Below, piece by piece: positions 6,734-43,300 of a stretch of 64,000 nucleotides of DNA. Each line of letters begins with the position of its first letter. Position 1 is the first letter of the stretch. Location of the stretch: NCBI GenBank assembly GCA_964472015.1, contig CAYYIP010000003.1, positions 37,957 to 101,956 on the forward strand, in the 5' to 3' direction. The position numbers and the translations under genes were made by a program. Below the pieces are notes generated by a model. That model was not told the origin of the DNA. It did no database searches and was given only the letters and a program-made list of their open reading frames with translations. The DNA comes from an uncultured Hyphomicrobiales bacterium (GTDB taxonomy: Bacteria > Bacteroidota > Ignavibacteria > Kapaibacteriales > UBA2268).

Positions 6734-6926
6734 ATTATTAAATATTAAAATATCCTATATGTTATATTATAGGATATTTTAATTAAATTAGTTTTTATGT
6801 TTTATATTTTTATTTTATAATAGTGAAATTGCTATAATACTTTTCTATAATACTTACAATTATATATGTATATCTTATGTAAAACAAAGATAATAAATTC
6901 TATTTGATAAATTATTAACTATTAAA

Positions 6927-7472
6927 TTAAGAAATAATAATTTTCTTTTCTGTAATATTTAATAAATGATTATTATATCTTATTAAGACAAATAAGTAAT
7001 CAGAAAGTCTATTTAGATATTTTAATGAATCTTCTGTTAATTTTTCCTGTTCATTAACTGTAACAGCAATTCTTTCAGCACGTCTACAAATTGTTCTGGC
7101 ATTATTTAAAAAAGCTGCAAATTTATTTGTATAAGTGTTAATAAAATTTTTTAAATCAGTTAATTCTTTATAATATTTATCTATTTTATTTTCTAAATTT
7201 TCTATATGTTTATTATTTATTCTAACTAATTTATTTATATTTACATCTAATGGAGTAGCAAAGTCTGCCCCAAGAATAAATAATTCTTCGGTTATTTTTG
7301 TTACTTCATCTTTTAATTCATTAGGTGCATCAAATTGCAAAGCAATGGATAATACAGAATTTAACTCATCTATTGTTCCATATAGTTCAACTCTTGGTGA
7401 ATTTTTATAAACTATTTTTCCACCTATTAAAGAAGTAGTCCCTTTGTCGCCAGTTTTAGTGTATATTTTCAT
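6927..7472 (-). CDS. ATP:cob(I)alamin adenosyltransferase, PduO-type
   Basis: N-terminus MKIYTKTGDKGTTSL is the hallmark of PduO/MMAB-type adenosyltransferases; length ~180 aa. Confidence 0.75.
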   Translation of the reverse strand: MKIYTKTGDKGTTSLIGGKIVYKNSPRVELYGTIDELNSVLSIALQFDAPNELKDEVTKITEELFILGADFATPLDVNINKLVRINNKHIENLENKIDKYYKELTDLKNFINTYTNKFAAFLNNARTICRRAERIAVTVNEQEKLTEDSLKYLNRLSDYLFVLIRYNNHLLNITEKKIIIS

Positions 7473-7504
7473 AAAATTTATTATAATATAATGATTAACT
7501 AAGT

Positions 7505-8224
7505 TTATTTATTTTTTCTTTCTATTACACGTCCATATGCAGATAGTTCGATAAATTCTTCGTCAGGATGTTCTAAATAAATTTTAATTTTAGCTTGTAT
7601 ATGTCCTTTATTTTCTGGTGTTATTGAAGTTTCTAAATTAAAACTTTCATCTGATTTTATTATATCACCTTCTTTTAGGTTAATATTTATATTATCTTGA
7701 GTTTTTTCTATTGATTTTATTTTAGCATCAACTTTTGAAGTATTTTTTATAATAGTAGTTGTATGTCCTAATTCACCTACATATAATTTATCAAAACTTA
7801 TATAACGAGGTATAATTACAAAAGGACGTATTACATTACATTTTAATAAATATACTAACTTTTGATTTTCTGTATCATTTGTTAATATAGAAACACTTTT
7901 TGTTATTTCTCCATTAAAAGTCTTGATGTTTAAATCTACTGTAATCTTAGCAGTATCTCCTGGTTTTATATTATTTGAATATCCCGGTATAGTAGTGCAA
8001 CCACACCCTGGTTTTATATCTAATATTTTTAATGTATCAGTTCCAATATTTTTAATAAAAATGGTTGTTGTTAAATCAACTTGATAATGAACATCGCCCC
8101 AATTTTTTTCTTTGTTTATTAATAAAGCCTTTGGTTGCGCGCTAGATTTATAACATATAATAACTAATAATGTTATAATAATAAATAGTTTGTTATAGTT
8201 ATAAAAAATATTTTTCTTTTTCAT
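7505..8224 (-). CDS. DUF1573 domain secreted protein
   Basis: Signal peptide, and a KPGCGCTT motif characteristic of DUF1573, a family restricted to Bacteroidota. Confidence 0.6.
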   Translation of the reverse strand: MKKKNIFYNYNKLFIIITLLVIICYKSSAQPKALLINKEKNWGDVHYQVDLTTTIFIKNIGTDTLKILDIKPGCGCTTIPGYSNNIKPGDTAKITVDLNIKTFNGEITKSVSILTNDTENQKLVYLLKCNVIRPFVIIPRYISFDKLYVGELGHTTTIIKNTSKVDAKIKSIEKTQDNININLKEGDIIKSDESFNLETSITPENKGHIQAKIKIYLEHPDEEFIELSAYGRVIERKNK

Positions 8225-17085: not shown

Positions 17086-18378
17086 ATGGGAAAAAAGAAT
17101 AAATTAAATAAAAAAATATATAATAGCATTTTTTTTATAACAATATTTTTGTTTTTATATATTAATTTATATTCTCAAAAATTACTTATTCAAATGGATA
17201 TTTCACAAACAAACCATTTAAAAGCATATGGTATTGTTTTTTGGTCTTTAGAGAAAGGAGATATTTGGGATTGGTTATTAAACTATCGTGGCGGATCTTT
17301 TATGACAGATTATCAACAACATATAGTTAATGAATGTAGAATTAGAGGTATAGATTTTCAAACTATAACAGATGATGAAGCTTATAAAATATATTCAATG
17401 ATACAGTCGGAAGGAGTAAATATGGATGTTGTTAAATTAGAGAAAGCACCAAAAATAGCAGTCTATGTGCAACCTGGTAATGCACCATGGGATGATGCAG
17501 TAAGAATGGTTTTAGAATATGCGGAAGTTAAATATGATGCTATTTGGGATGAAGAAGTATTAAACGATAAACTTTCTAATTATGATTGGTTACATTTACA
17601 TCATGAAGATTTTACTGGACAATATGGTAAATTTTGGGCTAAACATAGACATGAAAATTGGTATATTCAACAAGTTACACTAAATGAAAATACTGCACAA
17701 AAGTTGGGATATAAAAAAGTGTCTGAGATGAAAAAAGCTACTGTTAGAAAAATAAGAGAATTTGTAGCTAATGGTGGTTTTTTATTTGCTATGTGTACTG
17801 CAACAGATACATATGATATTGCCTTATCTGCTGAAGATGTAGATATTTGTGCAGAAATTTATGATGGCGATCAAGCAGATCCAAAATCTAATGACAAATT
17901 AGATTATTCTAAAACAATGGCGTTTGAAAATTATACTGTTTATACAAATCCTATGTATCATCCTTTTTCTGATATAGATGTTGGTGTTCAAAGTGAAATT
18001 GAAAATCAAGATGTTGATTATTTTACTCTTTTTGAATTTTCTGCAAAATATGATCCTATACCTACTATGTTAACACAATGTCATGTTAATGTTATTAAAG
18101 GATTTTTAGGACAAACAACAGCTTTTTATAAAAATAAAATAAAAAAATATGTTAATATATTAGCAGAAAAAGAAGGTACAGATGAAGTAAAATATATTCA
18201 AGGACATATAGGAAGAGGTTTTTTTTGTTGGTATGGTGGACATGATCCTGAAGATTATCAACATTTTCTTGGAGATCCACCTACTAATTTAGAATTATAT
18301 AAGACTTCTCCGGGATATAGACTTATATTAAATAATATATTATTTCCAGCTGCAAAGAAAAAAACACAAAAAACATAG
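17086..18378 (+). CDS. hypothetical protein with signal peptide/anchor and possible class-I glutamine-amidotransferase-like core
   Basis: Hydrophobic N-terminus (IFFITIFLFLYINLYSQ). Motifs KIAVYVQPGNAPWDD and GGFLFAMCTATD are loosely GATase1/DJ-1-like. No confident family assignment. Confidence 0.4.
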   Translation: MGKKNKLNKKIYNSIFFITIFLFLYINLYSQKLLIQMDISQTNHLKAYGIVFWSLEKGDIWDWLLNYRGGSFMTDYQQHIVNECRIRGIDFQTITDDEAYKIYSMIQSEGVNMDVVKLEKAPKIAVYVQPGNAPWDDAVRMVLEYAEVKYDAIWDEEVLNDKLSNYDWLHLHHEDFTGQYGKFWAKHRHENWYIQQVTLNENTAQKLGYKKVSEMKKATVRKIREFVANGGFLFAMCTATDTYDIALSAEDVDICAEIYDGDQADPKSNDKLDYSKTMAFENYTVYTNPMYHPFSDIDVGVQSEIENQDVDYFTLFEFSAKYDPIPTMLTQCHVNVIKGFLGQTTAFYKNKIKKYVNILAEKEGTDEVKYIQGHIGRGFFCWYGGHDPEDYQHFLGDPPTNLELYKTSPGYRLILNNILFPAAKKKTQKT

Positions 18379-18480: not shown

Positions 18481-19344
18481 TTGTATTTTGTAATTTTACT
18501 CATAAAATATATGAAAAAAATATTTATAGGGCTAATTATTTTTCTGATATACAGTATTAACAGAGATATATGTTTTGCTAATGTAATTATACAGATACCA
18601 GATACAGTAATTACAAAAGATATCATAACACTTCCTATTAATGGAAGTATAGAGGTAAATAAAAAAACAGGTGATATATTAGAATGTTGTTTTGAATTAA
18701 ATGGAGCTACAACTGATATTATAAGTATCGTAGGTACAGACGAATGTGCTATTATAGATAAAAATATTTCTTTTAGTTTTGATAAAGAAAATAATAAATT
18801 AATATTTTCTACTACTGAATTTAAATCAAATTTTAATGGTATTCTGTTTTACTTAACATTAAATATTTATCCACGTATTGATTTTTATTATAAACATGCT
18901 TCTTTTGTTGAAATTATTCCAACCGAAGTAAGTATTAATAAAAATAAAATTAATTTAACTGCTAAAAAAGGTACAATAAATATTAAAAATATTAATGTTA
19001 AACAAGATTATAGTGAACGTTTTTCTTATGCATTTCCTAATCCATTCTCTTATGAAACTGAATTATATTTCAGTATAGAATCAGAATCTACTTTTAAGTT
19101 GGAAATATATAATTATTATGGCGAACTTATTCAAGTTATTCCTTTAGAAAATAATATATTTAATTTTACTATAATGGATGCTAGTAGAAAAATTATTAAT
19201 TTGACAGAAAATTATAAATTTCAACGTGGATTATATAAAATAATACTTCAGCCTCAAGTAATACTTGCTCAAACAGGTGCTTATAGATTAGTTTTTGATA
19301 TTAATAATAATAGGCATATAGTTAATGTTTCTTTTATTAAATAA
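18481..19344 (+). CDS. secreted protein with probable T9SS type-A C-terminal sorting domain
   Basis: Signal peptide. C-terminal stretch AFPNPFSYETELYFSIESESTFKLEIYNYYGELIQVI resembles the T9SS CTD (PNPF...L.IYD..G..V). Confidence 0.5.
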   Translation: MYFVILLIKYMKKIFIGLIIFLIYSINRDICFANVIIQIPDTVITKDIITLPINGSIEVNKKTGDILECCFELNGATTDIISIVGTDECAIIDKNISFSFDKENNKLIFSTTEFKSNFNGILFYLTLNIYPRIDFYYKHASFVEIIPTEVSINKNKINLTAKKGTINIKNINVKQDYSERFSYAFPNPFSYETELYFSIESESTFKLEIYNYYGELIQVIPLENNIFNFTIMDASRKIINLTENYKFQRGLYKIILQPQVILAQTGAYRLVFDINNNRHIVNVSFIK

Positions 19345-19408: not shown

Positions 19409-21874
19409 ATGAAAAAAAGATTTTTAATAAATAATAAATTTTTAATAAATAATAATAGAATAAAATTTATAAGTATATTTTTTTTATTTATAATAGGTTT
19501 TAATTATAACTTATTAAATGCACAAAATACTAACAATGATTCTGTCGTTGATAATGTAAGTAAAATTCAGCAACAAAAGTTATATCAAATTAATAAAAAT
19601 GTAGAAGGACGTGAGTTTTGGTTATGTTTTATGATTAATTATTTTGATGATTTCATAAAAAAAAGGAATAGAGATATTGATTTACAATTATTTATTACAG
19701 GAGAATATGATGCAACAGTTACAATTGAATTTTCTAAGATTGGATATAAAGAAATTATTGAATTAAAAGGAGGACAGGTTGTATCTGTTAAGATAGATAA
19801 ACTTGCGCAAGTTACTGAATTTGGAACGGTAGAATCAGAACAAGCTGTACATATAACTTCTACACAACCTATAACTGTTTATGGATTGAATAGACGTTCT
19901 CAAACAACTGATACATTTTTAGGATATCCGGTTGAAGTTCTTGGTACTGAATATATGGTAATGAGTTATTTAAGCTTTGATTCAAAATTACTTTCTATAT
20001 TTTCTATTGTTGCCACCGAAGATAATACGGAGGTTGAAATAATTCCTACAGTTAGAACATCTAATAATAAACAAGCAGGGGAACCTTTTATTGTTACAAT
20101 GAATAAAGGAGATGTATATCAATGTGCTGGTATGTATCGTCCAAGAGATCCAAATTATTCTGACTTAACGGGTACAACTATAAAATCAAATAAAAAAATA
20201 GCAGTATTTAGTGGACATCAATGTGCTAATGTTCCTACTATTCAAGTTATGGCTTGTAATCATTTAGTTGAACAGATGCCACCTGTACAAACTTGGGGAA
20301 AACATTTTTATCTTGGGAAATTAAAAATGAGGTCAAAGTATACGTATAGAGTTCTTGCTTCAAATGATAGTACTAGAGTTTTTTGTGATACTGCTTTAAT
20401 TGCTGTTTTAATGAAAGGACAGTATGTTCAAAGAGATGCAACCGAACATATTCAAATTACTGCTGATAAGCCTGTGCTTGTTGCTCAGTATTCACCGGGG
20501 TTAGCTATAGGTGACGGATTAGGTGATCCTATGATGATACTTGTTAGTCCAACACAACAATTTTTAAATAAATATAGATTTGCTACTCCTGTAAATGGTA
20601 ATTGGTATCATTTAATTAATGTTATGGTTCCTACTAAAGCAATTAGTACTTTCAGAGTTAATGGGCTTCCTATAGAAAAAAAGTTATTTGAAAAACTTGG
20701 TGTAAGTAGATTTTCTACTGCTAGTATTAAATTATCATATGGCTCACATACGGTAGAATGCTCGCAACCATTTGGATTATATTCTTATGGTTTTGGATTT
20801 GGTGACGGAACTGATGCTTATGATGCTTATGGAACTATGGGAGGACAATCTTTTATTGAATATGAACCTGCTATTGATAGTATTCCGCCTGTTGCTGAAT
20901 TATTTAGACGGAACAAATATGGTGCGATTTTATTAAGTGATGATGGTTCTGATGATACGGGTATTTTAGATATAACTGTTGTTGAAGTAAAAAATATGAA
21001 AGTTAATATTCCTAACTTTGTACCTGCCGCACCTTCGGTTTTTGTTGATATCGTTCCAGAAAATACTAATAGTGCTGGTAAATTAATTCTTAGTGCTAAA
21101 GATGTTGCAAGAAATGAAGTATTTTATACTATTTGTTATGTATTTGATAATACTGCTTTAGAATATGATTATATAATACAAAAAGGTAGTAATATAGAAT
21201 GTGAAACAACTGAAACTATCCAGTTAGGATTATTTTATAATTTATCTTATAATTATTATTCTTCAAAATTTAATAAAACTGATAATATAAATAGTATAAA
21301 TAAATTTGATGGTATTTTTAATAAAAGTGGTATATTAGGCGTTTCAGTTTCAAGACATTTATTTGGAAAATTTAATGGAATCGCTAAATTAATTTTACAA
21401 ACAAATAATGCTGAATTTAATAGTATTGATTCTATAAAAAGATTTGTTATTGATAGTATTTCTAATAATTATGTACCTTATTTTGAAGGTTATTCTATTA
21501 ATATAAAAAATTTGAATTTGAATTTAGATTTGGGACTTGATTATAGAATATCTGAATATTTTTACTTATCAACTGGTGTTGTATGTAGATATGCTTTATC
21601 AAAGAAAGCAGAGAATAGTAAAGTAATATTTTTCCCGCCCGGTTATGTTTATGATAATAATAAATATAAGGAAATTATTTCAAATGAATTAAATTCTATT
21701 TCTAATTTTAATTTTGGAATTTATATTGGACTAGGATTTATTTGTAATATAGGATATAGAATAAGTCTTTTTACAGATATAAATTATTATTACTTACCAT
21801 TTTCTCAATTAAATGATGCAGATTTATTTTTAAATCAAATAAACTTAAAAATAGGATTAAAATATAGCTTGTAA
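19409..21874 (+). CDS. IgGFc-binding-protein N-terminal-domain protein with C-terminal predicted outer-membrane beta-barrel
   Basis: Signal peptide. GREFWLCFMINYFDD is the characteristic start of the IgGFc_binding N-domain. The last ~250 aa is N/Y/S-rich with alternating hydrophobics and ends ...LKIGLKYSL, i.e. OMP beta-barrel-like. Confidence 0.5.
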   Translation: MKKRFLINNKFLINNNRIKFISIFFLFIIGFNYNLLNAQNTNNDSVVDNVSKIQQQKLYQINKNVEGREFWLCFMINYFDDFIKKRNRDIDLQLFITGEYDATVTIEFSKIGYKEIIELKGGQVVSVKIDKLAQVTEFGTVESEQAVHITSTQPITVYGLNRRSQTTDTFLGYPVEVLGTEYMVMSYLSFDSKLLSIFSIVATEDNTEVEIIPTVRTSNNKQAGEPFIVTMNKGDVYQCAGMYRPRDPNYSDLTGTTIKSNKKIAVFSGHQCANVPTIQVMACNHLVEQMPPVQTWGKHFYLGKLKMRSKYTYRVLASNDSTRVFCDTALIAVLMKGQYVQRDATEHIQITADKPVLVAQYSPGLAIGDGLGDPMMILVSPTQQFLNKYRFATPVNGNWYHLINVMVPTKAISTFRVNGLPIEKKLFEKLGVSRFSTASIKLSYGSHTVECSQPFGLYSYGFGFGDGTDAYDAYGTMGGQSFIEYEPAIDSIPPVAELFRRNKYGAILLSDDGSDDTGILDITVVEVKNMKVNIPNFVPAAPSVFVDIVPENTNSAGKLILSAKDVARNEVFYTICYVFDNTALEYDYIIQKGSNIECETTETIQLGLFYNLSYNYYSSKFNKTDNINSINKFDGIFNKSGILGVSVSRHLFGKFNGIAKLILQTNNAEFNSIDSIKRFVIDSISNNYVPYFEGYSINIKNLNLNLDLGLDYRISEYFYLSTGVVCRYALSKKAENSKVIFFPPGYVYDNNKYKEIISNELNSISNFNFGIYIGLGFICNIGYRISLFTDINYYYLPFSQLNDADLFLNQINLKIGLKYSL

Positions 21875-21931
21875 TTTATTTATTTTATTGATGCTTGATA
21901 TTATAACATATATTAAATATGTAATTAAGAG

Positions 21932-21965
21932 AAAGAACCTAATTTAGGTTCTTTTTCTTTTTTTT
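21932..21965 (+). terminator. rho-independent terminator (agaacct-loop-aggttct followed by a T-run)
   Basis: Stem 21934-21940 / 21946-21952 followed by ttttcttttttttt. The stem sequence is related to the terminators after both duplicated genes. Confidence 0.6.
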
Positions 21966-22470
21966 ATCATAAATTTAATAAATATAATTTTTATATGTTT
22001 TAATTTAAGATAAAATATATGAAAATTATAATATAAGTCTTGTTAATATAGTACTATATTTTGTTATATGTATAGTTATGTTTTTATGATTTCTAATTAT
22101 TATAAAAATTGTATTTATTAGATAAAAATAATTTATAATATAAAACTAACTATTTATATAATAAAGATATTATATAAAAATACTTAGATATAGTTTTTCT
22201 ATTTTTTTAGATAAACTAATCTAGTTTTAAAGATATTAATTCTATAATTAAAAAAAATATTATATAAAAATATGAATATTATATTTTGATAATATAATAT
22301 TTTTTATTAATTTTGTAACAAAATTATATGTAGTATATATTATAGTATAGTTTTATAGATTTATATTGTAGTATTAAAATTAAATTGTTATGAATTTGAA
22401 ATTTATAAGATTAATTTTAATTTTTAATTTTTGAAATAAATATTTAAATAATAAAAAAGAGGATGTCTTT

Positions 22471-25400
22471 ATGAACAAGAAAATTTTATTCCCTAAATTT
22501 TTATTGATGCCATTTATTTTTATGTTATTGTTTCTGTTAAGTACAGAATATGCTTCATCAGAAATGTTTGAAACAGGAATAGGTGCATCTACTTCATCAA
22601 CAAATTATTTCCCCTATTATTTTTATAATTATGCAAGAGCACGAACTCTCTATCCAGCAAATGAGTTATGGGGTGAAGAGGGTGAAATTTATTCTTTTAG
22701 TTTTTACATAACTTCTGCTTCTGTAAGTTCTGGTATGAATAATTTTGCAATTTATATGCGTAATTGTGGTGATAGTACAGCTTATAATAATATTAGTGCA
22801 GTAATAGATACAAGTGCTAGTAGTGGTTTTGTTCGTGTATATAGTGCTAGTCTTTTTGCTCCTGTTGCATCAGATGTAAATGAATGGTATACTTTTGACT
22901 TTGAAACCCCATTCTTTTATGAAGGTAATAGTTTAGAAATCGTTATTGTGCATAATGATGGTTCATATTCAAATAATACAAATTTTTCTGTAAGAACTTA
23001 CTATACAGGTTCACATAGAAGATTAAATTATGCTTATAGTGATTCGCCTGGTAGTCCAACTAATTATTCTTCTGCGATGAATTATGCTGTAAGCGCTAGA
23101 TTTGAATATGAAGCAAGTAAGATGAAATATTTACGTACCGAAATAAATACACCTGAAATACAACAAATATCAGATGTTCAGTATAATCTTTTACAATTTA
23201 ATGTTGTAACAGAAAAATTTAAGGATCCACTTACAGTTAATAATTTAATTATAGATTTATTAGGTACAGATTTAGATGTTGATATTGAGAAAATAGAAGT
23301 TTATTGTACTTATGGTTCTGATTTATTTGCTCTTGGTGCTCCTGTAGGTACACTTACTAATGTTGATTTATTTTCAAAGAATAGAATAATTTTTGATACC
23401 CCTGTTACTTTAGGTGAGGGTTATAATTATTTTTGGATAACTTGTACTGTCAATCCAGCCAATACTTTAGGGGATAGGGTCTTAGATGCTAATTTACTTC
23501 AATTAAGTATAAATGGTGTTTATAAAGATACTGAGGAAGAATATACTAATACCGAAGGTGAAGCCCATATTAATTATACTCCAATTGAACTGTTAGATGT
23601 TCAAACATCTTATACTTTATGTTCTACTCATCCACCTAAACCTATAACAGTTTTGTCTAGAGGTACAGTTATTGGTTATATATGGGAGAGATGGAATGAT
23701 GCGCTTTCGGCATATGAAGTTATTCCTAATGCCACAACTAATACTTATAGTGTTATTACCGAAGAAGTTATGTCAGGTTATGATTTATATAGATTTACTG
23801 CCGTTTCTCCTAAGGGCGGGAATGAAACAATAGTCAATCAATCAGTAGAAATAAGTTTTGATTATGATATGGATTTAGAATATGCAAAGATTTATGATAA
23901 TGGTATTTTAGTAGATGAAGAAGACTTATATATTTTATGTGTTGGTGATGAAGTTATATTGACTAGTGAAATAGTTGGTGATTATAAAGAACTTATTTGG
24001 CAATATAGTACAGATAATATTAATTGGTTTAATATTTCCTTAATAGATATGCCAACAGCTAATACTCCGACTTTAAAATTTATAGCAGATGAAAGATATA
24101 AAAATTCTAAGATAAGATTATCAGTTTTAGGTACCGACGCTTGTGGTACAATAGTTTATAGTAATTCTATGAGTGTCAATGTATTTATGGATCCTTTATT
24201 TGTAACACAACCTTCTTCAGCCTCCTTATGTGCAGGTGAAGATTTTTATACTGCTTTGAATTTTAGTGGCGAAGAGCCAATATATCAGATGTGGTATAAA
24301 GATGGTGTTCCATTAGGAGATGAAAACGATACAATTTATAATAAACAGGAATTAGAATTTACTAATGTAGATGTTAATCTTGCTGGTTCTTATTATTATT
24401 TTATTCGAGTAGAAACTTGTTATGGTATAGTAGAAATGGTATCCGATACAATAATTATATCCGTTTTCCCAAATACCGAAGTACATAATATTACTAAAGG
24501 TAATGTACGTTCTAACGAAGGTGAAACAGCTATTTTAGAGGTTGAAGCAAGTTATGTACCTACCGAATTATATCCTCGTGGACAATTCCAATGGTATCGT
24601 TATGATGTTTTAACCAATACTTCTATTCCATTAGAAAATTCATATAAAATTAAAGGTGCCCAATCTACAGTTTTAGTTATAAATTATATTACATTAGCCG
24701 ATTATACTTTTAATGGTTCTTATTATTATTGTAGGGTTAGCGGGAAATGTGGTTCATCAGTAGATAGTGATCCTATTATGTTAATTCCATCTGAACAGAT
24801 AAAAATTATTAAGCAACCTGAAAGTTTAACCGTATGTTCTACAGTTGGGCTTGTAACCTTAAGTACTCAAGTATTTTCGAGTGAAGATAATTCAAAATTA
24901 CGTTATCAATGGTATTATGATAATACAGCTTTGATAGATGGTGGTGATTATACAGGTGTTGATACTAAAGAATTAAATGTAACCATAAATAGTTCAACAA
25001 AATATCCTATGCCATTTTATTGTAAGATTTGGCTTGAAGGTAATGATCCTAACTTAGATTTTATTAAAACTTCAGAAGTTATTATAGATGTTTTAGAAGA
25101 TTATCAACCTGAATTATCTTCATCTACTTTAAATGGAGACCCTGTTTTACTTGATGGTTTAACTACATCTTTAACAGTTGGTTCAGAATTAAATATTCAT
25201 ATAGAGACTTTAAATCCGAATACTGATATCATTCATTGGGCGAAGCGTAATTCAGTTAGTGGCGAATATGACTTACTTGGTTTAAGTGGGAATGATTTTG
25301 TTATTCCATCTTTAAGTTTAACGGATGCGGGAGATTATGCTATTATCATCAAAAATGAATGTGAAACAGCTACTCTTTTAATTGAATTTGTTTTAGAAGT

Positions 25401-25710
25401 TGAAGAATTTATAGATGAAACTACTAACACAGGTATAAGTATATTATCTATAGATAATATCGAGTTACTTCCTAATCCAGTTACTTCTATTTTACAAGTT
25501 AAGTATTTATCATCTTTATCTTCTGAAACCGAACTAACAATTTTAGATTTATGTGGTTCAGTATTATATAAAACATTACTACATAGTACAATAGGTTTAA
25601 ATGAATTTACAATAGATTTCAATAAGTTACATATTTCTAATGGAAGTTATTTTGTTCGTATAAATTCACGGGATAACTTTATAATAAAATCATTTGTATT
25701 ATCAAAATAA
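22471..25710 (+). CDS. large secreted Ig-like-repeat adhesin-type protein with T9SS type-A C-terminal sorting domain (copy 1)
   Basis: Signal peptide. Recurrent Ig-fold D-x-G-x-Y-x-C motifs (LAGSYYYFIRVETCYG, FNGSYYYCRVSGKCG, DAGDYAIIIKNECETA). C-terminal LLPNPVTSILQVKYLSS...LDLCGSVLYK is a T9SS CTD. Confidence 0.7.
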   Translation: MNKKILFPKFLLMPFIFMLLFLLSTEYASSEMFETGIGASTSSTNYFPYYFYNYARARTLYPANELWGEEGEIYSFSFYITSASVSSGMNNFAIYMRNCGDSTAYNNISAVIDTSASSGFVRVYSASLFAPVASDVNEWYTFDFETPFFYEGNSLEIVIVHNDGSYSNNTNFSVRTYYTGSHRRLNYAYSDSPGSPTNYSSAMNYAVSARFEYEASKMKYLRTEINTPEIQQISDVQYNLLQFNVVTEKFKDPLTVNNLIIDLLGTDLDVDIEKIEVYCTYGSDLFALGAPVGTLTNVDLFSKNRIIFDTPVTLGEGYNYFWITCTVNPANTLGDRVLDANLLQLSINGVYKDTEEEYTNTEGEAHINYTPIELLDVQTSYTLCSTHPPKPITVLSRGTVIGYIWERWNDALSAYEVIPNATTNTYSVITEEVMSGYDLYRFTAVSPKGGNETIVNQSVEISFDYDMDLEYAKIYDNGILVDEEDLYILCVGDEVILTSEIVGDYKELIWQYSTDNINWFNISLIDMPTANTPTLKFIADERYKNSKIRLSVLGTDACGTIVYSNSMSVNVFMDPLFVTQPSSASLCAGEDFYTALNFSGEEPIYQMWYKDGVPLGDENDTIYNKQELEFTNVDVNLAGSYYYFIRVETCYGIVEMVSDTIIISVFPNTEVHNITKGNVRSNEGETAILEVEASYVPTELYPRGQFQWYRYDVLTNTSIPLENSYKIKGAQSTVLVINYITLADYTFNGSYYYCRVSGKCGSSVDSDPIMLIPSEQIKIIKQPESLTVCSTVGLVTLSTQVFSSEDNSKLRYQWYYDNTALIDGGDYTGVDTKELNVTINSSTKYPMPFYCKIWLEGNDPNLDFIKTSEVIIDVLEDYQPELSSSTLNGDPVLLDGLTTSLTVGSELNIHIETLNPNTDIIHWAKRNSVSGEYDLLGLSGNDFVIPSLSLTDAGDYAIIIKNECETATLLIEFVLEVEEFIDETTNTGISILSIDNIELLPNPVTSILQVKYLSSLSSETELTILDLCGSVLYKTLLHSTIGLNEFTIDFNKLHISNGSYFVRINSRDNFIIKSFVLSK

Positions 25711-25778
25711 TGTTATTATTCTTATTATTATTATCTATTTATTAATATTTTAATATTAATGATTTTATTTTTAGAATA

Positions 25779-25813
25779 AAAAAAGAACCTTATTTAATAA
25801 GGTTCTTTTTTTT
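25779..25813 (+). terminator. rho-independent terminator (aagaacc-ttatttaataa-ggttctt followed by T9)
   Basis: Perfect 7-bp GC-containing stem, 11-nt loop, and a run of T directly downstream. Confidence 0.7.
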
Positions 25814-26203
25814 TACGACTCCATAAAATTTTATAACAATTATATTTTTTTTATTTTTTTTATGTTTTATTCGTTTTTTTCTACAAACATGAAAAAAAAA
25901 TTTGGTTATATTATTGTAGAACTCCTAAAAAACAGTTGTTGATTTTATATAAAAATATTATTTTAAATATGAAAATATATATGTAATATACTATGTATTC
26001 CAAATGTATATTACAATATTTAAATCAAAAATTATTATAAAAAATTATTTGTTTTTGTTAAAAATTTATTATTGTAATTATTATAATAATTTTGATAAAA
26101 TTAATATAGATACATTTTGCTAAGAAATGTGTCTATATAATTAAAGATAGATAATAAATAATAAATAAGAAATATTAATATTTTTTTTGATTTTAGAGGT
26201 GTT

Positions 26204-29200
26204 TTTTTATGAACAAGAAAATTTTATTCCCTAAATTTTTATTGATGCCATTTATTTTTATGTTATTGTTTCTGTTAAGTACAGAATATGCTTCATCAGA
26301 AATGTTTGAAACAGGAATAGGTGCATCTACTTCATCAACAAATTATTTCCCCTATTATTTTTATAATTATGCAAGAGCACGAACTCTCTATCCAGCAAAT
26401 GAGTTATGGGGTGAAGAGGGTGAAATTTATTCTTTTAGTTTTTACATAACTTCTGCTTCTGTAAGTTCTGGTATGAATAATTTTGCAATTTATATGCGTA
26501 ATTGTGGTGATAGTACAGCTTATAATAATATTAGTGCAGTAATAGATACAAGTGCTAGTAGTGGTTTTGTTCGTGTATATAGTGCTAGTCTTTTTGCTCC
26601 TGTTGCATCAGATGTAAATGAATGGTATACTTTTGACTTTGAAACCCCATTCTTTTATGAAGGTAATAGTTTAGAAATCGTTATTGTGCATAATGATGGT
26701 TCATATTCAAATAATACAAATTTTTCTGTAAGAACTTACTATACAGGTTCACATAGAAGATTAAATTATGCTTATAGTGATTCGCCTGGTAGTCCAACTA
26801 ATTATTCTTCTGCGATGAATTATGCTGTAAGCGCTAGATTTGAATATGAAGCAAGTAAGATGAAATATTTACGTACCGAAATAAATACACCTGAAATACA
26901 ACAAATATCAGATGTTCAGTATAATCTTTTACAATTTAATGTTGTAACAGAAAAATTTAAGGATCCACTTACAGTTAATAATTTAATTATAGATTTATTA
27001 GGTACAGATTTAGATGTTGATATTGAGAAAATAGAAGTTTATTGTACTTATGGTTCTGATTTATTTGCTCTTGGTGCTCCTGTAGGTACACTTACTAATG
27101 TTGATTTATTTTCAAAGAATAGAATAATTTTTGATACCCCTGTTACTTTAGGTGAGGGTTATAATTATTTTTGGATAACTTGTACTGTCAATCCAGCCAA
27201 TACTTTAGGGGATAGGGTCTTAGATGCTAATTTACTTCAATTAAGTATAAATGGTGTTTATAAAGATACTGAGGAAGAATATACTAATACCGAAGGTGAA
27301 GCCCATATTAATTATACTCCAATTGAACTGTTAGATGTTCAAACATCTTATACTTTATGTTCTACTCATCCACCTAAACCTATAACAGTTTTGTCTAGAG
27401 GTACAGTTATTGGTTATATATGGGAGAGATGGAATGATGCGCTTTCGGCATATGAAGTTATTCCTAATGCCACAACTAATACTTATAGTGTTATTACCGA
27501 AGAAGTTATGTCAGGTTATGATTTATATAGATTTACTGCCGTTTCTCCTAAGGGCGGGAATGAAACAATAGTCAATCAATCAGTAGAAATAAGTTTTGAT
27601 TATGATATGGATTTAGAATATGCAAAGATTTATGATAATGGTATTTTAGTAGATGAAGAAGACTTATATATTTTATGTGTTGGTGATGAAGTTATATTGA
27701 CTAGTGAAATAGTTGGTGATTATAAAGAACTTATTTGGCAATATAGTACAGATAATATTAATTGGTTTAATATTTCCTTAATAGATATGCCAACAGCTAA
27801 TACTCCGACTTTAAAATTTATAGCAGATGAAAGATATAAAAATTCTAAGATAAGATTATCAGTTTTAGGTACCGACGCTTGTGGTACAATAGTTTATAGT
27901 AATTCTATGAGTGTCAATGTATTTATGGATCCTTTATTTGTAACACAACCTTCTTCAGCCTCCTTATGTGCAGGTGAAGATTTTTATACTGCTTTGAATT
28001 TTAGTGGCGAAGAGCCAATATATCAGATGTGGTATAAAGATGGTGTTCCATTAGGAGATGAAAACGATACAATTTATAATAAACAGGAATTAGAATTTAC
28101 TAATGTAGATGTTAATCTTGCTGGTTCTTATTATTATTTTATTCGAGTAGAAACTTGTTATGGTATAGTAGAAATGGTATCCGATACAATAATTATATCC
28201 GTTTTCCCAAATACCGAAGTACATAATATTACTAAAGGTAATGTACGTTCTAACGAAGGTGAAACAGCTATTTTAGAGGTTGAAGCAAGTTATGTACCTA
28301 CCGAATTATATCCTCGTGGACAATTCCAATGGTATCGTTATGATGTTTTAACCAATACTTCTATTCCATTAGAAAATTCATATAAAATTAAAGGTGCCCA
28401 ATCTACAGTTTTAGTTATAAATTATATTACATTAGCCGATTATACTTTTAATGGTTCTTATTATTATTGTAGGGTTAGCGGGAAATGTGGTTCATCAGTA
28501 GATAGTGATCCTATTATGTTAATTCCATCTGAACAGATAAAAATTATTAAGCAACCTGAAAGTTTAACCGTATGTTCTACAGTTGGGCTTGTAACCTTAA
28601 GTACTCAAGTATTTTCGAGTGAAGATAATTCAAAATTACGTTATCAATGGTATTATGATAATACAGCTTTGATAGATGGTGGTGATTATACAGGTGTTGA
28701 TACTAAAGAATTAAATGTAACCATAAATAGTTCAACAAAATATCCTATGCCATTTTATTGTAAGATTTGGCTTGAAGGTAATGATCCTAACTTAGATTTT
28801 ATTAAAACTTCAGAAGTTATTATAGATGTTTTAGAAGATTATCAACCTGAATTATCTTCATCTACTTTAAATGGAGACCCTGTTTTACTTGATGGTTTAA
28901 CTACATCTTTAACAGTTGGTTCAGAATTAAATATTCATATAGAGACTTTAAATCCGAATACTGATATCATTCATTGGGCGAAGCGTAATTCAGTTAGTGG
29001 CGAATATGACTTACTTGGTTTAAGTGGGAATGATTTTGTTATTCCATCTTTAAGTTTAACGGATGCGGGAGATTATGCTATTATCATCAAAAATGAATGT
29101 GAAACAGCTACTCTTTTAATTGAATTTGTTTTAGAAGTTGAAGAATTTATAGATGAAACTACTAACACAGGTATAAGTATATTATCTATAGATAATATCG

Positions 29201-29546
29201 AGTTACTTCCTAATCCAGTTACTTCTATTTTACAAGTTAAGTATTTATCATCTTTATCTTCTGAAACCGAACTAACAATTTTAGATTTATGTGGTTCAGT
29301 ATTATATAAAACATTACTACATAGTACAATAGGTTTAAATGAATTTACAATAGATTTCAATAAGTTACATATTTCTAATGGAAGTTATTTTGTTCGTATA
29401 AATTCACGAGATAACTTTATAATAAAATCATTTGTATTATCAAAATAATGTTAATATTCTTATTATTATCTATTTATTAATATTTTAATATTAATAATTT
29501 TATTTTTAGAATAAAAAAAGAACCTTATTTAATAAGGTTCTTTTTT
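26204..29546. repeat. tandem duplication copy 2
   Basis: See copy 1. The encoded 1079-aa protein is identical in the ORF track. Confidence 0.9.
26209..29448 (+). CDS. large secreted Ig-like-repeat adhesin-type protein with T9SS type-A C-terminal sorting domain (copy 2, protein identical to copy 1)
   Basis: Identical 1079-aa translation. A different 5' flank means its own promoter and RBS context (agaggtgttttttt ATG versus aagaggatgtcttt ATG). Confidence 0.7.
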   Translation: MNKKILFPKFLLMPFIFMLLFLLSTEYASSEMFETGIGASTSSTNYFPYYFYNYARARTLYPANELWGEEGEIYSFSFYITSASVSSGMNNFAIYMRNCGDSTAYNNISAVIDTSASSGFVRVYSASLFAPVASDVNEWYTFDFETPFFYEGNSLEIVIVHNDGSYSNNTNFSVRTYYTGSHRRLNYAYSDSPGSPTNYSSAMNYAVSARFEYEASKMKYLRTEINTPEIQQISDVQYNLLQFNVVTEKFKDPLTVNNLIIDLLGTDLDVDIEKIEVYCTYGSDLFALGAPVGTLTNVDLFSKNRIIFDTPVTLGEGYNYFWITCTVNPANTLGDRVLDANLLQLSINGVYKDTEEEYTNTEGEAHINYTPIELLDVQTSYTLCSTHPPKPITVLSRGTVIGYIWERWNDALSAYEVIPNATTNTYSVITEEVMSGYDLYRFTAVSPKGGNETIVNQSVEISFDYDMDLEYAKIYDNGILVDEEDLYILCVGDEVILTSEIVGDYKELIWQYSTDNINWFNISLIDMPTANTPTLKFIADERYKNSKIRLSVLGTDACGTIVYSNSMSVNVFMDPLFVTQPSSASLCAGEDFYTALNFSGEEPIYQMWYKDGVPLGDENDTIYNKQELEFTNVDVNLAGSYYYFIRVETCYGIVEMVSDTIIISVFPNTEVHNITKGNVRSNEGETAILEVEASYVPTELYPRGQFQWYRYDVLTNTSIPLENSYKIKGAQSTVLVINYITLADYTFNGSYYYCRVSGKCGSSVDSDPIMLIPSEQIKIIKQPESLTVCSTVGLVTLSTQVFSSEDNSKLRYQWYYDNTALIDGGDYTGVDTKELNVTINSSTKYPMPFYCKIWLEGNDPNLDFIKTSEVIIDVLEDYQPELSSSTLNGDPVLLDGLTTSLTVGSELNIHIETLNPNTDIIHWAKRNSVSGEYDLLGLSGNDFVIPSLSLTDAGDYAIIIKNECETATLLIEFVLEVEEFIDETTNTGISILSIDNIELLPNPVTSILQVKYLSSLSSETELTILDLCGSVLYKTLLHSTIGLNEFTIDFNKLHISNGSYFVRINSRDNFIIKSFVLSK

Positions 29547-29547
29547 T
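29512..29547 (+). terminator. rho-independent terminator (duplicate of 25779..25813)
   Basis: Same stem-loop aagaacc/ggttctt, followed by T7. Confidence 0.7.
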
Positions 29548-29588: not shown

Positions 29589-30515
29589 TTAATTATTAAT
29601 ATTATTTTGAAAAAATTTAATTGTATCTTTTATTCCATCATCAAACAATATAGTTGGTGTCCATCCAAATTTATCTTTGATTTTTTTTATACTAATACAA
29701 CTTTTTCGTTGTTCGCCATCTTTTGCTTTTCCATGTATTTCTGGGAAATTTTTATTCATATGGTTTTGTATTGTTTGAAAAACTTTATTTGTTGTTGTTT
29801 CTATTCCTGTTCCTACATTATAAATTCCAGAACTATCTTTTCTTAATGCTATTAAGTTTGCTTTTACAACATCAGATATATGTATATAATCACGAGTATA
29901 AAATCCATCACCATTAATTATAGGTTGTTCATTTAATAATAATTTTTTGATAAATATTGCAACTACACCAGCTTCGCCATTAGGATTTTGGCGTGCTCCA
30001 TATACATTTGCATATCTTAGAATAGTATAATCTAGATTATATATTTTTTTATAATAATATAAAAATTTTTCATTAGTTAATTTTGATATACCATAAGGAG
30101 AGCAAGGTTGAGTATTTGCTGTTTCTGGTGTAGGGATTTCTACTTCTTCACCATATATAGCGCCGCCTGTTGAAGCAAAAATTATTTTTTTTACATTTGT
30201 TTTTATTGCTGCTTCATATATATTTAAACTTCCTAATACATTTATATTTGCATCAAAAATTGGATTCTCTACAGAAAAACGTACATTCATTTGTGCAGCA
30301 TGATGTGAAATTATATCAAATTTTTCTTTTTCAAATATATCAATTATATTTTTGTTTGTAATATCAATATTATAAAATTTTGCATTTTTATTTATGTTGT
30401 TTATATTTCCAGAACTTAGATTATCAATAATAACTACATTATGTCCAAGTTTTATATAGGCATCTGCTATATGTGAGGCTATAAAGCCTGCACCACCAGT
30501 TACTAATATTTTCAT
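29589..30515 (-). CDS. NAD-dependent epimerase/dehydratase (GalE-like, short-chain SDR)
   Basis: N-terminal Rossmann motif MKILVTGGAGFIASHI; YxxxK-region (YGISK); ~308 aa. Confidence 0.8.
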   Translation of the reverse strand: MKILVTGGAGFIASHIADAYIKLGHNVVIIDNLSSGNINNINKNAKFYNIDITNKNIIDIFEKEKFDIISHHAAQMNVRFSVENPIFDANINVLGSLNIYEAAIKTNVKKIIFASTGGAIYGEEVEIPTPETANTQPCSPYGISKLTNEKFLYYYKKIYNLDYTILRYANVYGARQNPNGEAGVVAIFIKKLLLNEQPIINGDGFYTRDYIHISDVVKANLIALRKDSSGIYNVGTGIETTTNKVFQTIQNHMNKNFPEIHGKAKDGEQRKSCISIKKIKDKFGWTPTILFDDGIKDTIKFFQNNINN

Positions 30516-40329: not shown

Positions 40330-43300
40330 ATGAATAATGAAGTTAGTAAAAAAGATATTAAAGATAAAGTAGGAAGTAAACAAAAACAAAGTTTATTAAG
40401 GAATATTTTTAATTTTATGGTTAAAAGTATTTTAATTATATGTATGTTTTTAATATTGTTTATTGTTATTATTTCCTATTCTTCCAGTGTAAGACATTAT
40501 TTTTTAAATAAAATAACTGATGTTGTAAATGAATTTTTAATTGCAGATGTTGAAATAAGCGATATTCATATAATTAAATTTAATGGTATAGCTTTGCAGC
40601 ATGTTAGAGTTATAACTGCAGGTGATACATTAGCTTATATCCCTGAGATAGAAATCAATATAAATTTTGAAAAAATATTTTTAGGTATTATAGATGTAAA
40701 TTTTATACAATTACAAGCCCCCCGTATTAAGTTACTTAGATCCTTTCAAGATAGTGTCTGGAATTATAATAAAATCATAAATCCAAGTAAGAATATTGAG
40801 GAAACTACTTCGCCATCTAAATTGAAAATTAATATAGGTGAGTTAATTTTAAATAATGCCTATTTTGTAATGTGGGATTCTACAGCTGAATATAAAAGTG
40901 CAGGACATATTCATTATGACAAACTTGCTTTAAAAGAACTAAATTTATATGCTAAAAATATCAGTGTTAATCTTGAAAATATGAATATAGAAGCTAATAT
41001 TGTTAATTTAGCTGCATATGAAATTCCATCTAATTTTAGAATTCATAAATTTTCCGGCAAAGCAAAAATTGATAATAATTCTATTGAATTAAAGAGTACG
41101 AAAATTGTTTTAGATAATGCTAATTTTGATTTTGATGCAAGAATGTCTAATTTTTCTATTTTTGGTAATGGAAATAGAAATATAGCAAAAGTAGATATGT
41201 TCTTAGAATTAACTGGAAATGATATTGATTTAATTTTTATTGATAATTTTGTTATTATTCCTGTAAGATTAGGTTTTGTAAAAAATATAGAGATTTTAGC
41301 TAGCGGTACTTTGATGGATTTAAATGTACAAAAACTTATCTTAAATACGAATGATTCACATATTTATTTAACAGAATGTAGATTAACTAACTTATTAAAT
41401 ACAGATAGTTTTTCGTATAAAGGGATATTAGATTGCACTAATATATCAAGAATGGATATTTCTGATATGTTAAAAAATATTGATTTAAGTGCAGTTCCTA
41501 ATTTTAAGAAAGTATTAATTAATAATACAAAATTTTATGGGACTAAAGATTCTGTATATGCAGATTTAGATTTTAAAACATTCATAGGAAATGTTAAGGG
41601 TAATGTTGGTATAGGATTTGGAAGACAGCCGTTTTCTTATGATATAAATTTAGATTTAAGAAAAATTAATTTATCTGATATATTGAATAATAAAAAATTT
41701 AGTTCAAATATTAATGCAAATTTTTATTTAAAAGGGTATGGAATAAATTCTGGTAATATATTTGCGAATGCAAAAATAGAATTGAAACGTTCTGATTTTT
41801 TAGGTTTTAATTTTCTTGAATCAAATATATTGATTGATGCAATAGGTGATAGTTTAATAATTCATGATTTTTCACTTCAAAAATTAAATATTCCTAATAC
41901 TAATATCCAAATAGATAACTCAAAATTTGGTGGGACAGAAGTTATTTATAGAAATTTAATTAATAATCAAGAATTAAATTATGATAGTAAGATATCTATT
42001 AATGGAGGAATTAATTTTAAATCTTTTGATATGTTGCATCTAATTTTGAATATAGATTTAGAACATATAGAATTATTAGATATAATACATAAAGTTACAG
42101 ATGTTGAATATAAAAATTTACCTACTGTTATTGATAGTAAAATAAAATTAGATATAACAAGTTTTGATATTGATAATATGATTGGTAATTTTGATATAGA
42201 TTTTCAACGTCTTGAATTTAGAAATAAAAATATGTTACCACTTACAATTAGTGGAGCGATTGACATGCAAGATACTTTAAATCATAAAATAGAATTAAAT
42301 ATAGATAATATTTTTAATAATATTCTTTATTTATCTGTTAATGGTAAGTATTATTTTACAGAATTATTAAATGATATTTCTACTCATTTTAATGGCAATT
42401 ATAATTTTATTTCAAATAAAATTAATAACTTTTTTGAGCAAATAAAAACAGATACTAATACAATAATTGATAATAAAAATATTAAATATATAACATTAAA
42501 TAAAAATAATGCAAATGTAATTTTTCAAGTTAGAGATATAGATTGGCTTAATATATTTATTCCTGAGTTTGAATCTAACTCATCAATAATAGATGTAAAA
42601 TTTAACTTTAATTCAAATTATTTGTATAGTAATTTGAATGTAGATTCTATAAAAATAAAAAACTTAAATATAAAATATAAGAATTTTAATGCAGTTATAG
42701 ATAATATAATTATTAATGGAGAAAATAATATAAATATTTTAGATTCTGTAGCAAATTTAGAAAATTTATATTGTGTTATAAAAGATGGAAGAGGTATAAA
42801 TATTTCGGGGTCGGCACTTGATTCTATTGAGTTAAATGCTAATATTAATAAACAACAGCTAAATATTAATTTTATTGGAACATATAATAATATAATAAAA
42901 TCAAAATTAGTTGGTGAAATTAATTTTAAAGATACTACAAATAGTGAAGTAATTTTTGATACATTAGAAATTAATTTTAATAAACAAAAATGGCATAATA
43001 CAGATAAAATAATTGCTTTTTTATTACCTAATGGTATTGATATATATAATTTTAATATTGAACGCGATAATAAAGAAAAATTATTTCTAAAAGGAATTTT
43101 GAATGGTGATACGATTGATAATGTTTCATTAACATTAAATAATTTTGAATTTAATGACTTACAGTCTATTCTTAATTTAAATAATAAAAATAATTTTGAT
43201 ATATTTGCAAAACTAGATACATTAAAAGTTTTAGTTAATGGTACATTAAATTCTCCTTTAATAGACTTGTCTTTATTTGTAGATGATATAAGATATATTA

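Follow-up and report, generated by a model that had tools for sequence, protein, structure and literature searches.

A tandem pair of near-identical surface-protein genes in an uncultured wastewater bacterium, probably kept alike by recombination between the copies

Introduction

When two neighbouring genes of a bacterial genome encode exactly the same long protein, they may have been copied too recently for any divergence to accumulate, or their likeness may be maintained. This question is raised by a tandem pair of genes for a predicted surface protein of 1079 amino acids, found in a 64-kb stretch of DNA that is called the window below. The preliminary description of the locus proposed either that the duplication is very recent or that gene conversion homogenises the coding sequence (CDS), and asked that an assembly artefact be considered as well.

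Two copies that differ only near their 3′ ends

The repeat pair comprises the following features:

22468..25812, + strand: repeat copy 1 (CDS, 102-nt 3′ UTR and terminator), by blastn and MAFFT alignment against copy 2
26206..29547, + strand: repeat copy 2 (CDS, 99-nt 3′ UTR and terminator), by the same alignments against copy 1
22471..25710, + strand: CDS of copy 1, 1079 aa, from the ORF list, with Pfam Ig_3, I-set, Por_Secre_tail and weak BNR_assoc_N matches and TIGR04183
26209..29448, + strand: CDS of copy 2, 1079 aa, same protein as copy 1, one synonymous difference at 29409
25711..25812, + strand: 3′ UTR edge of copy 1; the markers that distinguish it from copy 2 are 25716 T, 25722-24 TTA and 25761 G
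29449-29547, + strand: 3′ UTR edge of copy 2, with markers A, deletion and A

Copies 1 and 2 (W1 and W2) align in blastn as one 3345-nt block. Their identity is 99.82%, 3 positions being mismatched and the 1 gap being a 3-nt indel; the repeat period is 3738 nt. The two tandem units previously described with this period are thereby borne out. Their coordinates needed a shift of 1-2 nt and the length of the spacer a correction from 390 to 393 nt, while all other details given were right. Both 3240-nt CDSs have identical translations and, as had been noticed from the sequence, a lone synonymous cgg/cga change lies near the 3′ end: G at 25671 against A at 29409 (CGG/CGA, codon 1067). The 3′ UTRs, for which at least three indels or substitutions had been reported, differ by two substitutions (T/A at 25716 and G/A at 25761) and by the TTA indel at 25722-24. 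Counted as alignment columns, W1 and W2 differ at 6, 1 of them in the CDS. All four between-copy differences are confined to the last 142 nt, for which the chance is (142/3345)^4 = 3e-6. At the other end, complete identity begins 3 nt 5′ of the ATG, and a degraded match, AGAGG(A)TGT(C)TTT versus AGAGGTGTTTTTTT, may carry the likeness of the copies to about -14. There is no other long direct repeat in the 64-kb window. The between-copy differences can all be reached from the unique 3′ flank, where a short-read assembler could also phase them; that a 190-kb contig crosses two near-identical repeats of 3.3 kb points to the use of long reads.

The regions around the copies are as follows:

21875..22467, + strand: upstream region U of copy 1, 593 nt
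22308-22315: TAATTTTG box, a candidate -7 element, in upstream region U, within a stretch that aligns to the upstream region of the sister species
25778..25812, + strand: intrinsic-terminator-like hairpin and T-run after copy 1 (RNA fold)
25813..26205, + strand: spacer S, unique, 393 nt, upstream region of copy 2
26087-26094: TAATTTTG box, a candidate -7 element, in spacer S
26099-26142: strong hairpin in spacer S, -16.3 kcal/mol, z -6.1 (RNA fold)
29513-29547, + strand: intrinsic-terminator-like hairpin and T-run after copy 2 (RNA fold)

Upstream region U and spacer S show no similarity to each other (local alignment z = -0.5 against shuffles), and each unit ends at its own hairpin and T-run (-15.8 kcal/mol and z -5.3 for copy 1; -21.7 kcal/mol and z -6.8 for copy 2), in agreement with the unrelated 5′ flanks and separate terminators seen at the outset. 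The terminator stem AAGAACCT..AGGTTCTT has just 3 occurrences in the window. As sources of spacer S we rejected the copy-1 upstream region (z -0.5), the downstream flank (z 4.1, weak and not convincing) and the spacer of the sister species (z -0.6). A scan for sigma-70 promoters was uninformative in this DNA of 25% GC (65 sites versus 64 expected), and the Rfam scan of the window returned only a tRNA.

The pair is framed by these neighbours:

19409..21874, + strand: upstream neighbour, 821-aa IgGFc_binding-domain protein (PF17517, E 1.6e-75)
29589..30515, - strand: downstream neighbour, convergent, NAD-dependent sugar epimerase/dehydratase (PF01370, E 3.5e-58)

The genes around the tandem pair are housekeeping genes, and the IgGFc_binding neighbour is syntenic in the sister species (L001, L009 and L010). 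Since the flanking genes diverge by 0.3-1.4% between the same strain lineages as those compared below, the locus is ordinary chromosome. A C terminus common to the IgGFc_binding neighbour and the duplicated protein was considered and dismissed (blastp E >= 0.36), only the terminator stems being alike. Elsewhere in the window, a second protein with a type IX secretion (T9SS) C-terminal domain (CTD) is encoded at 48071-51175; the T9SS CTD together with a PRK12901-type SecA points to Bacteroidota.

The encoded protein

From N to C terminus, the 1079-aa protein is made of a putative signal peptide, a jelly-roll-like module, a BNR_assoc_N-like beta-sandwich module, an Ig-like region and a T9SS type A CTD. 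Two of these were placed on the DNA:

22558..23118 (copy 1) and 26296-26856 (copy 2), + strand: N-terminal module, aa 30-216
25471..25698 (copy 1) and 29209-29436 (copy 2), + strand: T9SS C-terminal sorting domain, aa 1001-1076

By inspection, the N terminus, MNKKILFPKFLLMPFIFMLLFLLSTEYASS, is basic and then hydrophobic. The sorting domain is recognised by PF18962 (Por_Secre_tail) at aa 1001-1076 (E 2.1e-8, 34.8 bits for a cutoff of 27) and by TIGR04183 (26.5 bits, cutoff 23), which supports the proposal that the protein is T9SS cargo; no component of the T9SS machinery (PorK/L/M/N, SprA/Sov, PorV, PorU) was recognised among the window ORFs scanned. The Pfam match to BNR_assoc_N is weak, and the N-terminal module has no match to any described family. 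A first structure model (aa 1-400, 4 sequences) had a pLDDT of 42, too poor for use. The surface protein is probably an adhesin or a glycan binder, and its N-terminal module may be similar to a carbohydrate-binding module (CBM).

Between strains the N-terminal domain changes rapidly (omega 0.72-2.1), and alleles are mosaic across lineages. For a surface protein, these properties would fit antigenic or phase variation, in which one copy would act as a donor cassette diversifying the expressed one. But both copies are full length, each with its own upstream region and terminator, and they encode identical proteins, so that no diversity is stored. Moreover, the neighbours examined included no recombinase, and the only inverted repeats near the upstream regions, two pairs, are AT-rich, with 71-73% complementarity and with arms separated by 3.9 and 8.8 kb. 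We regard such a cassette system as very unlikely. The earlier suggestion that the pair serves as a substrate for recombination-driven surface variation is not supported in the sense of variation within the genome: both copies give the same protein in the window, and likewise in the other lineages as far as collapsed contigs tell, and because the copies are identical there is no such variation. Higher dosage, or control by two promoters, would be a likelier benefit.

The array in other strain lineages

The contigs used for comparison come from wastewater metagenomes, with varied samples and assemblers and including Swedish wastewater-plant runs. They were obtained from the short-read runs ERR1414224, ERR1414225, ERR1414269, SRR22590172, ERR14064717 and ERR14064718 and from the samples of ERZ27250763, ERZ27250648, ERZ27250662 and ERZ28615095. 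The window alone resolves both copies on one molecule; every other contig is one traversal of the repeat, i.e. a collapsed or single-path consensus. The repeat-to-spacer junction is present in four of them (L003, L007, L008 and L014) and the spacer-to-repeat junction in five (L006, L007, L008, L013 and L014). These array junctions belong to lineage B (L003, L006, L014), lineage C (L007, L008) and lineage D (L013), and the two types are thus seen in at least six independent contigs, obtained from different samples and with different assemblers.

This bears directly on the possibility of an assembly artefact, i.e. a single-copy gene expanded to two or a collapsed consensus written twice. It could draw on three contigs (L002, L004 and L015) that follow a single-copy path: they enter the repeat from the upstream flank and leave it into the downstream flank with the epimerase gene. 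But an artefact of this single assembly is made unlikely by the independent contigs that carry the same junctions. Furthermore, the copy-specific UTR variants recur with the correct flank: in L008, as in W1, the spacer comes after the copy-1 type, and in L013, as in W2, the epimerase flank comes after the copy-2 type. The copy-2 type is also found in L007, a 3758-nt loop consisting of repeat end, spacer and repeat, which is what a true tandem should give when collapsed. As the junction-bearing contigs come from independent assemblies, the initial worry is largely answered, and we hold an artefact to be most improbable. The tandem pair is a genuine chromosomal duplication of a T9SS-sorted surface-protein gene.

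In lineages B, C, D and E, a 3345-nt unit has 22-65 differences from that of the window, and the lineages differ from one another at up to 77 positions per repeat unit. Same-strain chimeras or contamination are excluded as the source of the junction contigs because of these 22-65 differences. The dS between lineages is 0.0155-0.040, versus 0.0015 between the copies of the window, and for copies as divergent as the lineages, one CDS difference or none would have a Poisson probability of <= 6e-9. The paralogues within the window are therefore closer to each other than to the orthologues of related lineages.

If only this genome were considered, one could think of a very recent tandem duplication, confined to it and too young to have diverged, without any homogenisation; the single CDS difference in 3240 nt would fit, and the sharp 5′ boundary could be the breakpoint. 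However, lineages B, C and D have the same junctions and the same spacer, kept at 96-98% identity, while their repeats are 22-65 positions off. Under such a scenario the array would have had to arise separately in every lineage, each time with the same breakpoints and with the same 393 nt as filler. In addition, the UTR differences between the copies are common to lineages C and D and must therefore predate the splits of these two. This half of the preliminary proposal is extremely unlikely to be correct. Judged by the shared junctions and spacer, the duplication is older than the split of the compared genomes, at least four wastewater strain lineages having diverged after it.

The other half, gene conversion homogenising the CDS, is supported by the contrast between 1 CDS difference within the window and 22-65 positions between lineages, and also by the way in which variable sites are grouped. 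In lineages A, C and D alike, the state of each of the three UTR markers depends on the copy. At every variable interior site the two window copies carry the same base, and these sites thus track the lineage and not the copy. Since the UTR edges group by copy and the interior by lineage, this discordance is a signature of conversion. In lineage B the UTR is homogenised, and the six contigs of this lineage (six samples, both flank contexts) differ among them at <= 2 sites, which argues against hidden fixed differences between its copies; outside the window, near-identity of the copies is seen indirectly in every lineage, because the repeats there are collapsed or single-path consensus sequences.

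In the sister species, the CTD of the second tandem gene is 78% identical to that of its neighbour, versus 45% between species, which suggests partial homogenisation there too. Further afield, a scan of GTDB genomes gave a single distant relative, which is 23% identical and belongs to a rumen Bacteroidia MAG, and scans of JGI metagenomes with a spacer-specific 39-mer and by protein alignment gave nothing close.

There is another way to see the two copies of the window, namely as a snapshot of an array varying from 1 to at least 3 copies through continual unequal crossing-over and acting as a dosage or on-off switch. RecA-dependent deletion and expansion work efficiently on a direct repeat of 3.3 kb. 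The single-copy paths mentioned above, among which L002 and L004 share a private allele at 25584, together with the spacer-repeat-spacer path of L008 and L014, would fit alleles of one and of at least three copies, and in the sister species the second gene is present or absent (L001 versus L010 and L011). Yet De Bruijn assemblers may emit any such walk from a collapsed two-copy graph. Besides, many contig ends lie not at repeat boundaries but where the DNA is extremely rich in A and T (near 22164-22180 and 25944-25964), which indicates a coverage bias. We consider a variable array possible, though not the probable explanation.

A model for the maintenance of the pair

All things considered, we think it highly probable that this is an old tandem pair whose near-identity is maintained by recombination between the copies, that is, by concerted evolution. 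Repeated homologous recombination, either as interlocus gene conversion or as cycles of unequal crossing-over, would be the mechanism. Because exchange needs homology on both sides, the repeat interior would be homogenised and the edges would escape; the edges keeping copy-specific differences would be the ~14 nt 5′ of the ATG and, at the other end, the final ~140 nt with the 3′ UTR. The unrelated presumed promoters would sit outside the homology, and the cell would make one protein from two separately terminated genes, each with a different upstream region. The likely benefit would be a raised dosage, or two regulatory regimes for the expression of one protein. As for the protein, the T9SS CTD would attach it to the cell surface, with the jelly-roll-like N-terminal domain exposed at the distal end of an Ig-like stalk, and new N-terminal alleles, quick to turn over between strains, would be copied into both genes.

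One may go further and speculate that an arrangement of one protein under two promoters is actively maintained, recombination being bounded by the coding region and holding the proteins identical, the unrelated upstream regions providing separate regulation, copy number drifting among strains from 1 to at least 3 as a dosage control, and new alleles of a fast-evolving, undescribed N-terminal binding domain spreading to all copies, so that the array would evolve as a unit under diversifying selection; taken as a whole, this extension seems to us rather unlikely.

In uncultured wastewater bacteria, the locus provides a clean natural example of a large surface-protein gene that undergoes concerted evolution. 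Tandem copies may be nearly identical and yet old, and dating by paralogue divergence would be badly wrong for this pair. Short-read metagenome assemblies collapse such arrays to contigs that look single-copy, masking variation in the dosage of surface proteins. The N-terminal module, widespread and without a described family, could merit curation.

Comparison with known systems

The T9SS type A CTD cargo of Bacteroidota includes large Ig-repeat adhesins (Pfam PF18962, TIGR04183). The present protein resembles them by its signal peptide (here putative), its beta-sandwich and Ig-like modules and its C-terminal Por_Secre_tail, and differs by an N-terminal module outside described families; its surface anchoring is predicted from sequence.

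With regard to concerted evolution, the closest parallels concern quite different genes. The two tuf copies of Salmonella are in inverse orientation. These duplicates, tufA and tufB, are kept alike by gene conversion (PMC5485169), and the resemblance lies in two near-identical protein-coding copies per chromosome that are homogenised by recombination, identity here also beginning around the ATG and decaying at the 3′ edge. However, tufA and tufB are dispersed housekeeping genes, whereas here we deal with direct tandem repeats 393 nt apart that encode a fast-evolving surface protein, and conversion would follow from comparative data. Long-lasting recurrent concerted evolution in prokaryotes was described by Wang and Chen in 2018 (PMC6053082), and its defining pattern, within-genome paralogues more alike than between-genome orthologues, is the one found here, but for an accessory surface protein and at a time depth limited to strains (dS up to 0.04), with hints at the species level. 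In Arabidopsis halleri (PMC3749932), the tandem HMA4 copies undergo ectopic gene conversion within a cluster and in a setting where dosage is relevant, as may be the case here; that system is eukaryotic, with three copies and a demonstrated adaptive role, features that set it apart from our pair. Concerted evolution is a well-known process, and the tandem pair is a new example of it that leaves the understanding of its mechanism unchanged.

The tandem pair and its surroundings

The two tandem units (22468-25812 and 26206-29547, repeat period 3738 nt) give a 3345-nt blastn alignment of 99.82% identity (3 mismatches, 1 gap), and the limits proposed for them in the preliminary description proved right to within 1-2 nt. 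The features of the locus are as follows.

19409-21874: upstream neighbour, 821 aa, IgGFc_binding domain (PF17517, E 1.6e-75)
21933-21953: terminator stem AAGAACCT..AGGTTCTT after the IgGFc_binding gene
22471-25710, + strand: copy 1, 1079 aa, from the ORF list
25783-25807: same stem, after copy 1
26099-26142: strong hairpin in the spacer between the copies (-16.3 kcal/mol, z -6.1), just 3' of the one + strand TAATTTTG box in that spacer
26209-29448, + strand: copy 2, 1079 aa, from the ORF list
29518-29542: same stem, after copy 2

Base-by-base alignment bore out the identical translations and the single synonymous change reported earlier: the proteins are 100% the same, and the sole difference in 3240 nt of coding sequence is 25671 G versus 29409 A (CGG/CGA). 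The 3' UTRs differ at 25716 (T/A), by a TTA indel (25722-24) and at 25761 (G/A), and a strong hairpin followed by a T-run ends each copy. On the 5' side full identity stops 3 nt before the ATG; to judge from a degraded match near an AGAGG motif, homology may extend to about -14. The upstream region of copy 1 (593 nt) and the spacer upstream of copy 2 (393 nt) have no detectable relationship (z = -0.5), and a search of the 64-kb window found no further long direct repeat.

The locus lies in ordinary chromosomal DNA, between housekeeping genes, in a genome of roughly 25% GC. The T9SS domain and the type of SecA suggest that this genome belongs to Bacteroidota. A 1560-aa ORF (40330-45012) with no significant match in Pfam or NCBIfam lies where the window is richest in AT (GC about 0.20-0.21).

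Reality of the array

Contigs were fetched for variants from other samples in the protein's 90%-identity cluster and mapped onto the window. They derive from a variety of samples and assemblers, with project PRJEB14051 (wastewater plants in Sweden) among the sources, and every junction of the array is present among them.

Paths of metagenome contigs through the array
L003: upstream flank, repeat, spacer (152 nt)
L006: spacer (86 nt), repeat, downstream flank
L013: spacer (354 nt), repeat, downstream flank, epimerase, RidA
L007 (3758 nt): last 30 nt of the repeat, spacer, repeat
L008, L014: spacer, repeat, spacer
L002, L004, L015: upstream flank, repeat, downstream flank (single-copy-looking)

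The path of L007 is the loop expected of a collapsed tandem. Spacer identity across contigs is 96-98%, and the copy-specific UTR variants of the window are found again beside the matching flank in other lineages. Since junctions, spacer and flank-matched UTR variants all recur in independent contigs, an artefact limited to the window's assembly is very unlikely. We infer that long reads lie behind the 190-kb contig, which crosses two near-identical 3.3-kb repeats.

The three single-copy-looking paths and the two running from spacer to spacer would fit strains with one-copy and three-or-more-copy alleles; the same paths are also legal walks through a collapsed two-copy graph, and the ends of many contigs fall in DNA of extreme AT content, away from the boundaries of the repeat. 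Several independent short-read contigs start or end within a few nt of ~22164-22180 (L004, L005, L015) or of ~25944-25964 (L003, L008, L014), which points to sequencing-coverage dropouts in DNA of roughly 25% GC. Among the single-copy paths, those of L002 and L004 have in common a private allele at 25584; lineage E is known from L015 alone.

Age of the duplication and homogenisation of the copies

The 12 repeat units aligned fall into five lineages: A (the window's copies, W1 and W2), B (L002-L006, L014), C (L007, L008), D (L013) and E (L015). Lineages differ at 21-77 alignment columns per 3345 nt (22-65 for the window against the others). This is ordinary vertical divergence, as flanking genes are 0.3-1.4% apart between the same lineages. 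Alleles of the gene (22471-25710) are mosaic: that of L015 switches back and forth between B-like and C-like blocks, and that of L013 resembles A at its 5' end and C in its middle part, which suggests recombination between strains at the surface-protein gene. At 23011-23019 L013 also carries an insertion of 3 nt that is compensated by a deletion of 3 nt, changing GSHRR to GTSYR.

An array with the same boundaries and spacer is found in lineages A, B, C and D, so that the duplication is older than their splits. Without homogenisation, the two copies would be expected to differ at least as much as lineages do; yet dS is 0.0015 between W1 and W2 as against 0.0155 for A-C and 0.040 for A-B, and had the copies diverged like lineages, the Poisson probability of at most one coding difference would be 6e-9 or less. 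The four between-copy differences are all confined to the unit's last 142 nt (p about 3e-6). The copy-1 UTR type (T, TTA, G) precedes the spacer in W1 and L008. In W2 and L013 the epimerase flank comes after the copy-2 type (A, deletion, A), a type that L007 has too. Because these markers are copy-specific across lineages, the edges of the repeat have an orthologous history and its interior a paralogous one. This clustering and the markers fit recombination between copies.

Lineage B has one UTR type in both flank contexts, as if exchange had reached the end of homology. Its six contigs represent six samples and both flank contexts, and no two of them are more than two sites apart, a uniformity that argues against hidden fixed copy differences, possibly smoothed over by assemblers. 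The pair is thus an old tandem under concerted evolution. Of the two readings offered at first, homogenisation of the coding sequence by gene conversion stands and a very recent duplication falls, since the array predates the lineage splits; the homogenising route is either gene conversion or repeated unequal crossing-over, which are inseparable on present data.

The locus in a sister species

Several assemblies (L001, L009, L010, L011) represent a sister species in which gene order is conserved and protein identity is about 55%; upstream lie OmpA-family, transglutaminase-core, BrkB-family, cysteinyl-tRNA-synthetase-family, Maf, two unknown and IgGFc_binding genes. In both species, synteny with the duplicated gene extends to the IgGFc_binding gene and the two unannotated ORFs before it in the window (17086-18378, 18481-19344), which may for this reason be functionally linked to it. 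The C-terminal third of the IgGFc_binding protein has no family match and appears beta-barrel-like by eye.

In L001 a second tandem gene (6730-7671, 313 aa) comes after the long one. In it the N-terminal module is fused straight to the C-terminal T9SS sorting domain (CTD), the Ig region being absent, and a terminator of its own, again with the GAACCTT..AAGGTTC stem, closes the gene. It is missing from L010 and L011 of that species, a presence/absence polymorphism. Identity of the N-terminal module is 56% for the between-species pair A1-A2, 49% for the within-species pair A2-B2 and 37% for A1-B2. For the CTD it is 78% (A2-B2) versus 45% (A1-A2), hence much higher within the species than between species, which fits partial 3'-end homogenisation or a later duplication. 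As the spacers of the two species are not alignable, the duplications need not go back to a single ancestral event. The locus is evidently prone to tandem duplication.

The encoded protein and its putative expression signals

Pfam signals comprise Ig_3, I-set, a weak BNR_assoc_N-like module at aa 240-344 and, at aa 1001-1076, Por_Secre_tail; NCBIfam likewise confirms the type A sorting domain. By inspection, the N terminus resembles a Sec signal peptide. No Pfam, NCBIfam or PDB sequence matches the N-terminal module (aa ~30-216), even with a 23-sequence profile as query. With the first 400 aa as query, exhaustive HMMER searching retrieved 358 representative clusters at E <= 1e-3; among the 150 matches listed, most fall on aa ~35-200 or on the module at aa ~215-350, and many are giant proteins, one of 4037 aa with 14 matched stretches. 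An AlphaFold model of the N-terminal module, from a 15-sequence alignment, is an all-beta sandwich of moderate confidence (pLDDT 65.9, pTM 0.75), and a distal ligand-binding, possibly glycan-binding, role is a reasonable inference. Of the 30 amino-acid changes between A and B, 22 fall in this module, where omega is 0.72 (A-B) and 2.1 (A-C), against 0.13 for the remainder of the protein.

The Bacteroidota -7 consensus is TAnnTTTG. Exactly one + strand box of this type lies in each upstream region, at 22308-22315 for copy 1, inside a stretch alignable with the sister species' upstream region, and at 26087-26094 in the spacer. In DNA this rich in AT the motif shows hardly any enrichment (159 occurrences versus 135 expected). 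The spacer hairpin would lie at the 5' end of a putative copy-2 transcript; it is kept in other lineages, with the exception of L014, which has an 11-nt insertion in the 5' arm. Since a terminator follows copy 1, each gene probably has a transcript of its own, and the putative promoters are unrelated. The AAGAACCT..AGGTTCTT stem occurs three times in 64 kb versus 0 expected, and also after both genes of the sister species; its presence at these 3' ends reflects shared ancestry or convergence.

Relation to known systems

A cassette system for antigenic variation is an unlikely reading, since the two copies are identical and neither an invertible element nor, among the neighbouring genes scanned, a recombinase turned up. 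The window pair matches the pattern described for bacterial duplicates under concerted evolution, and is of moderate interest as a new example of an already known process.
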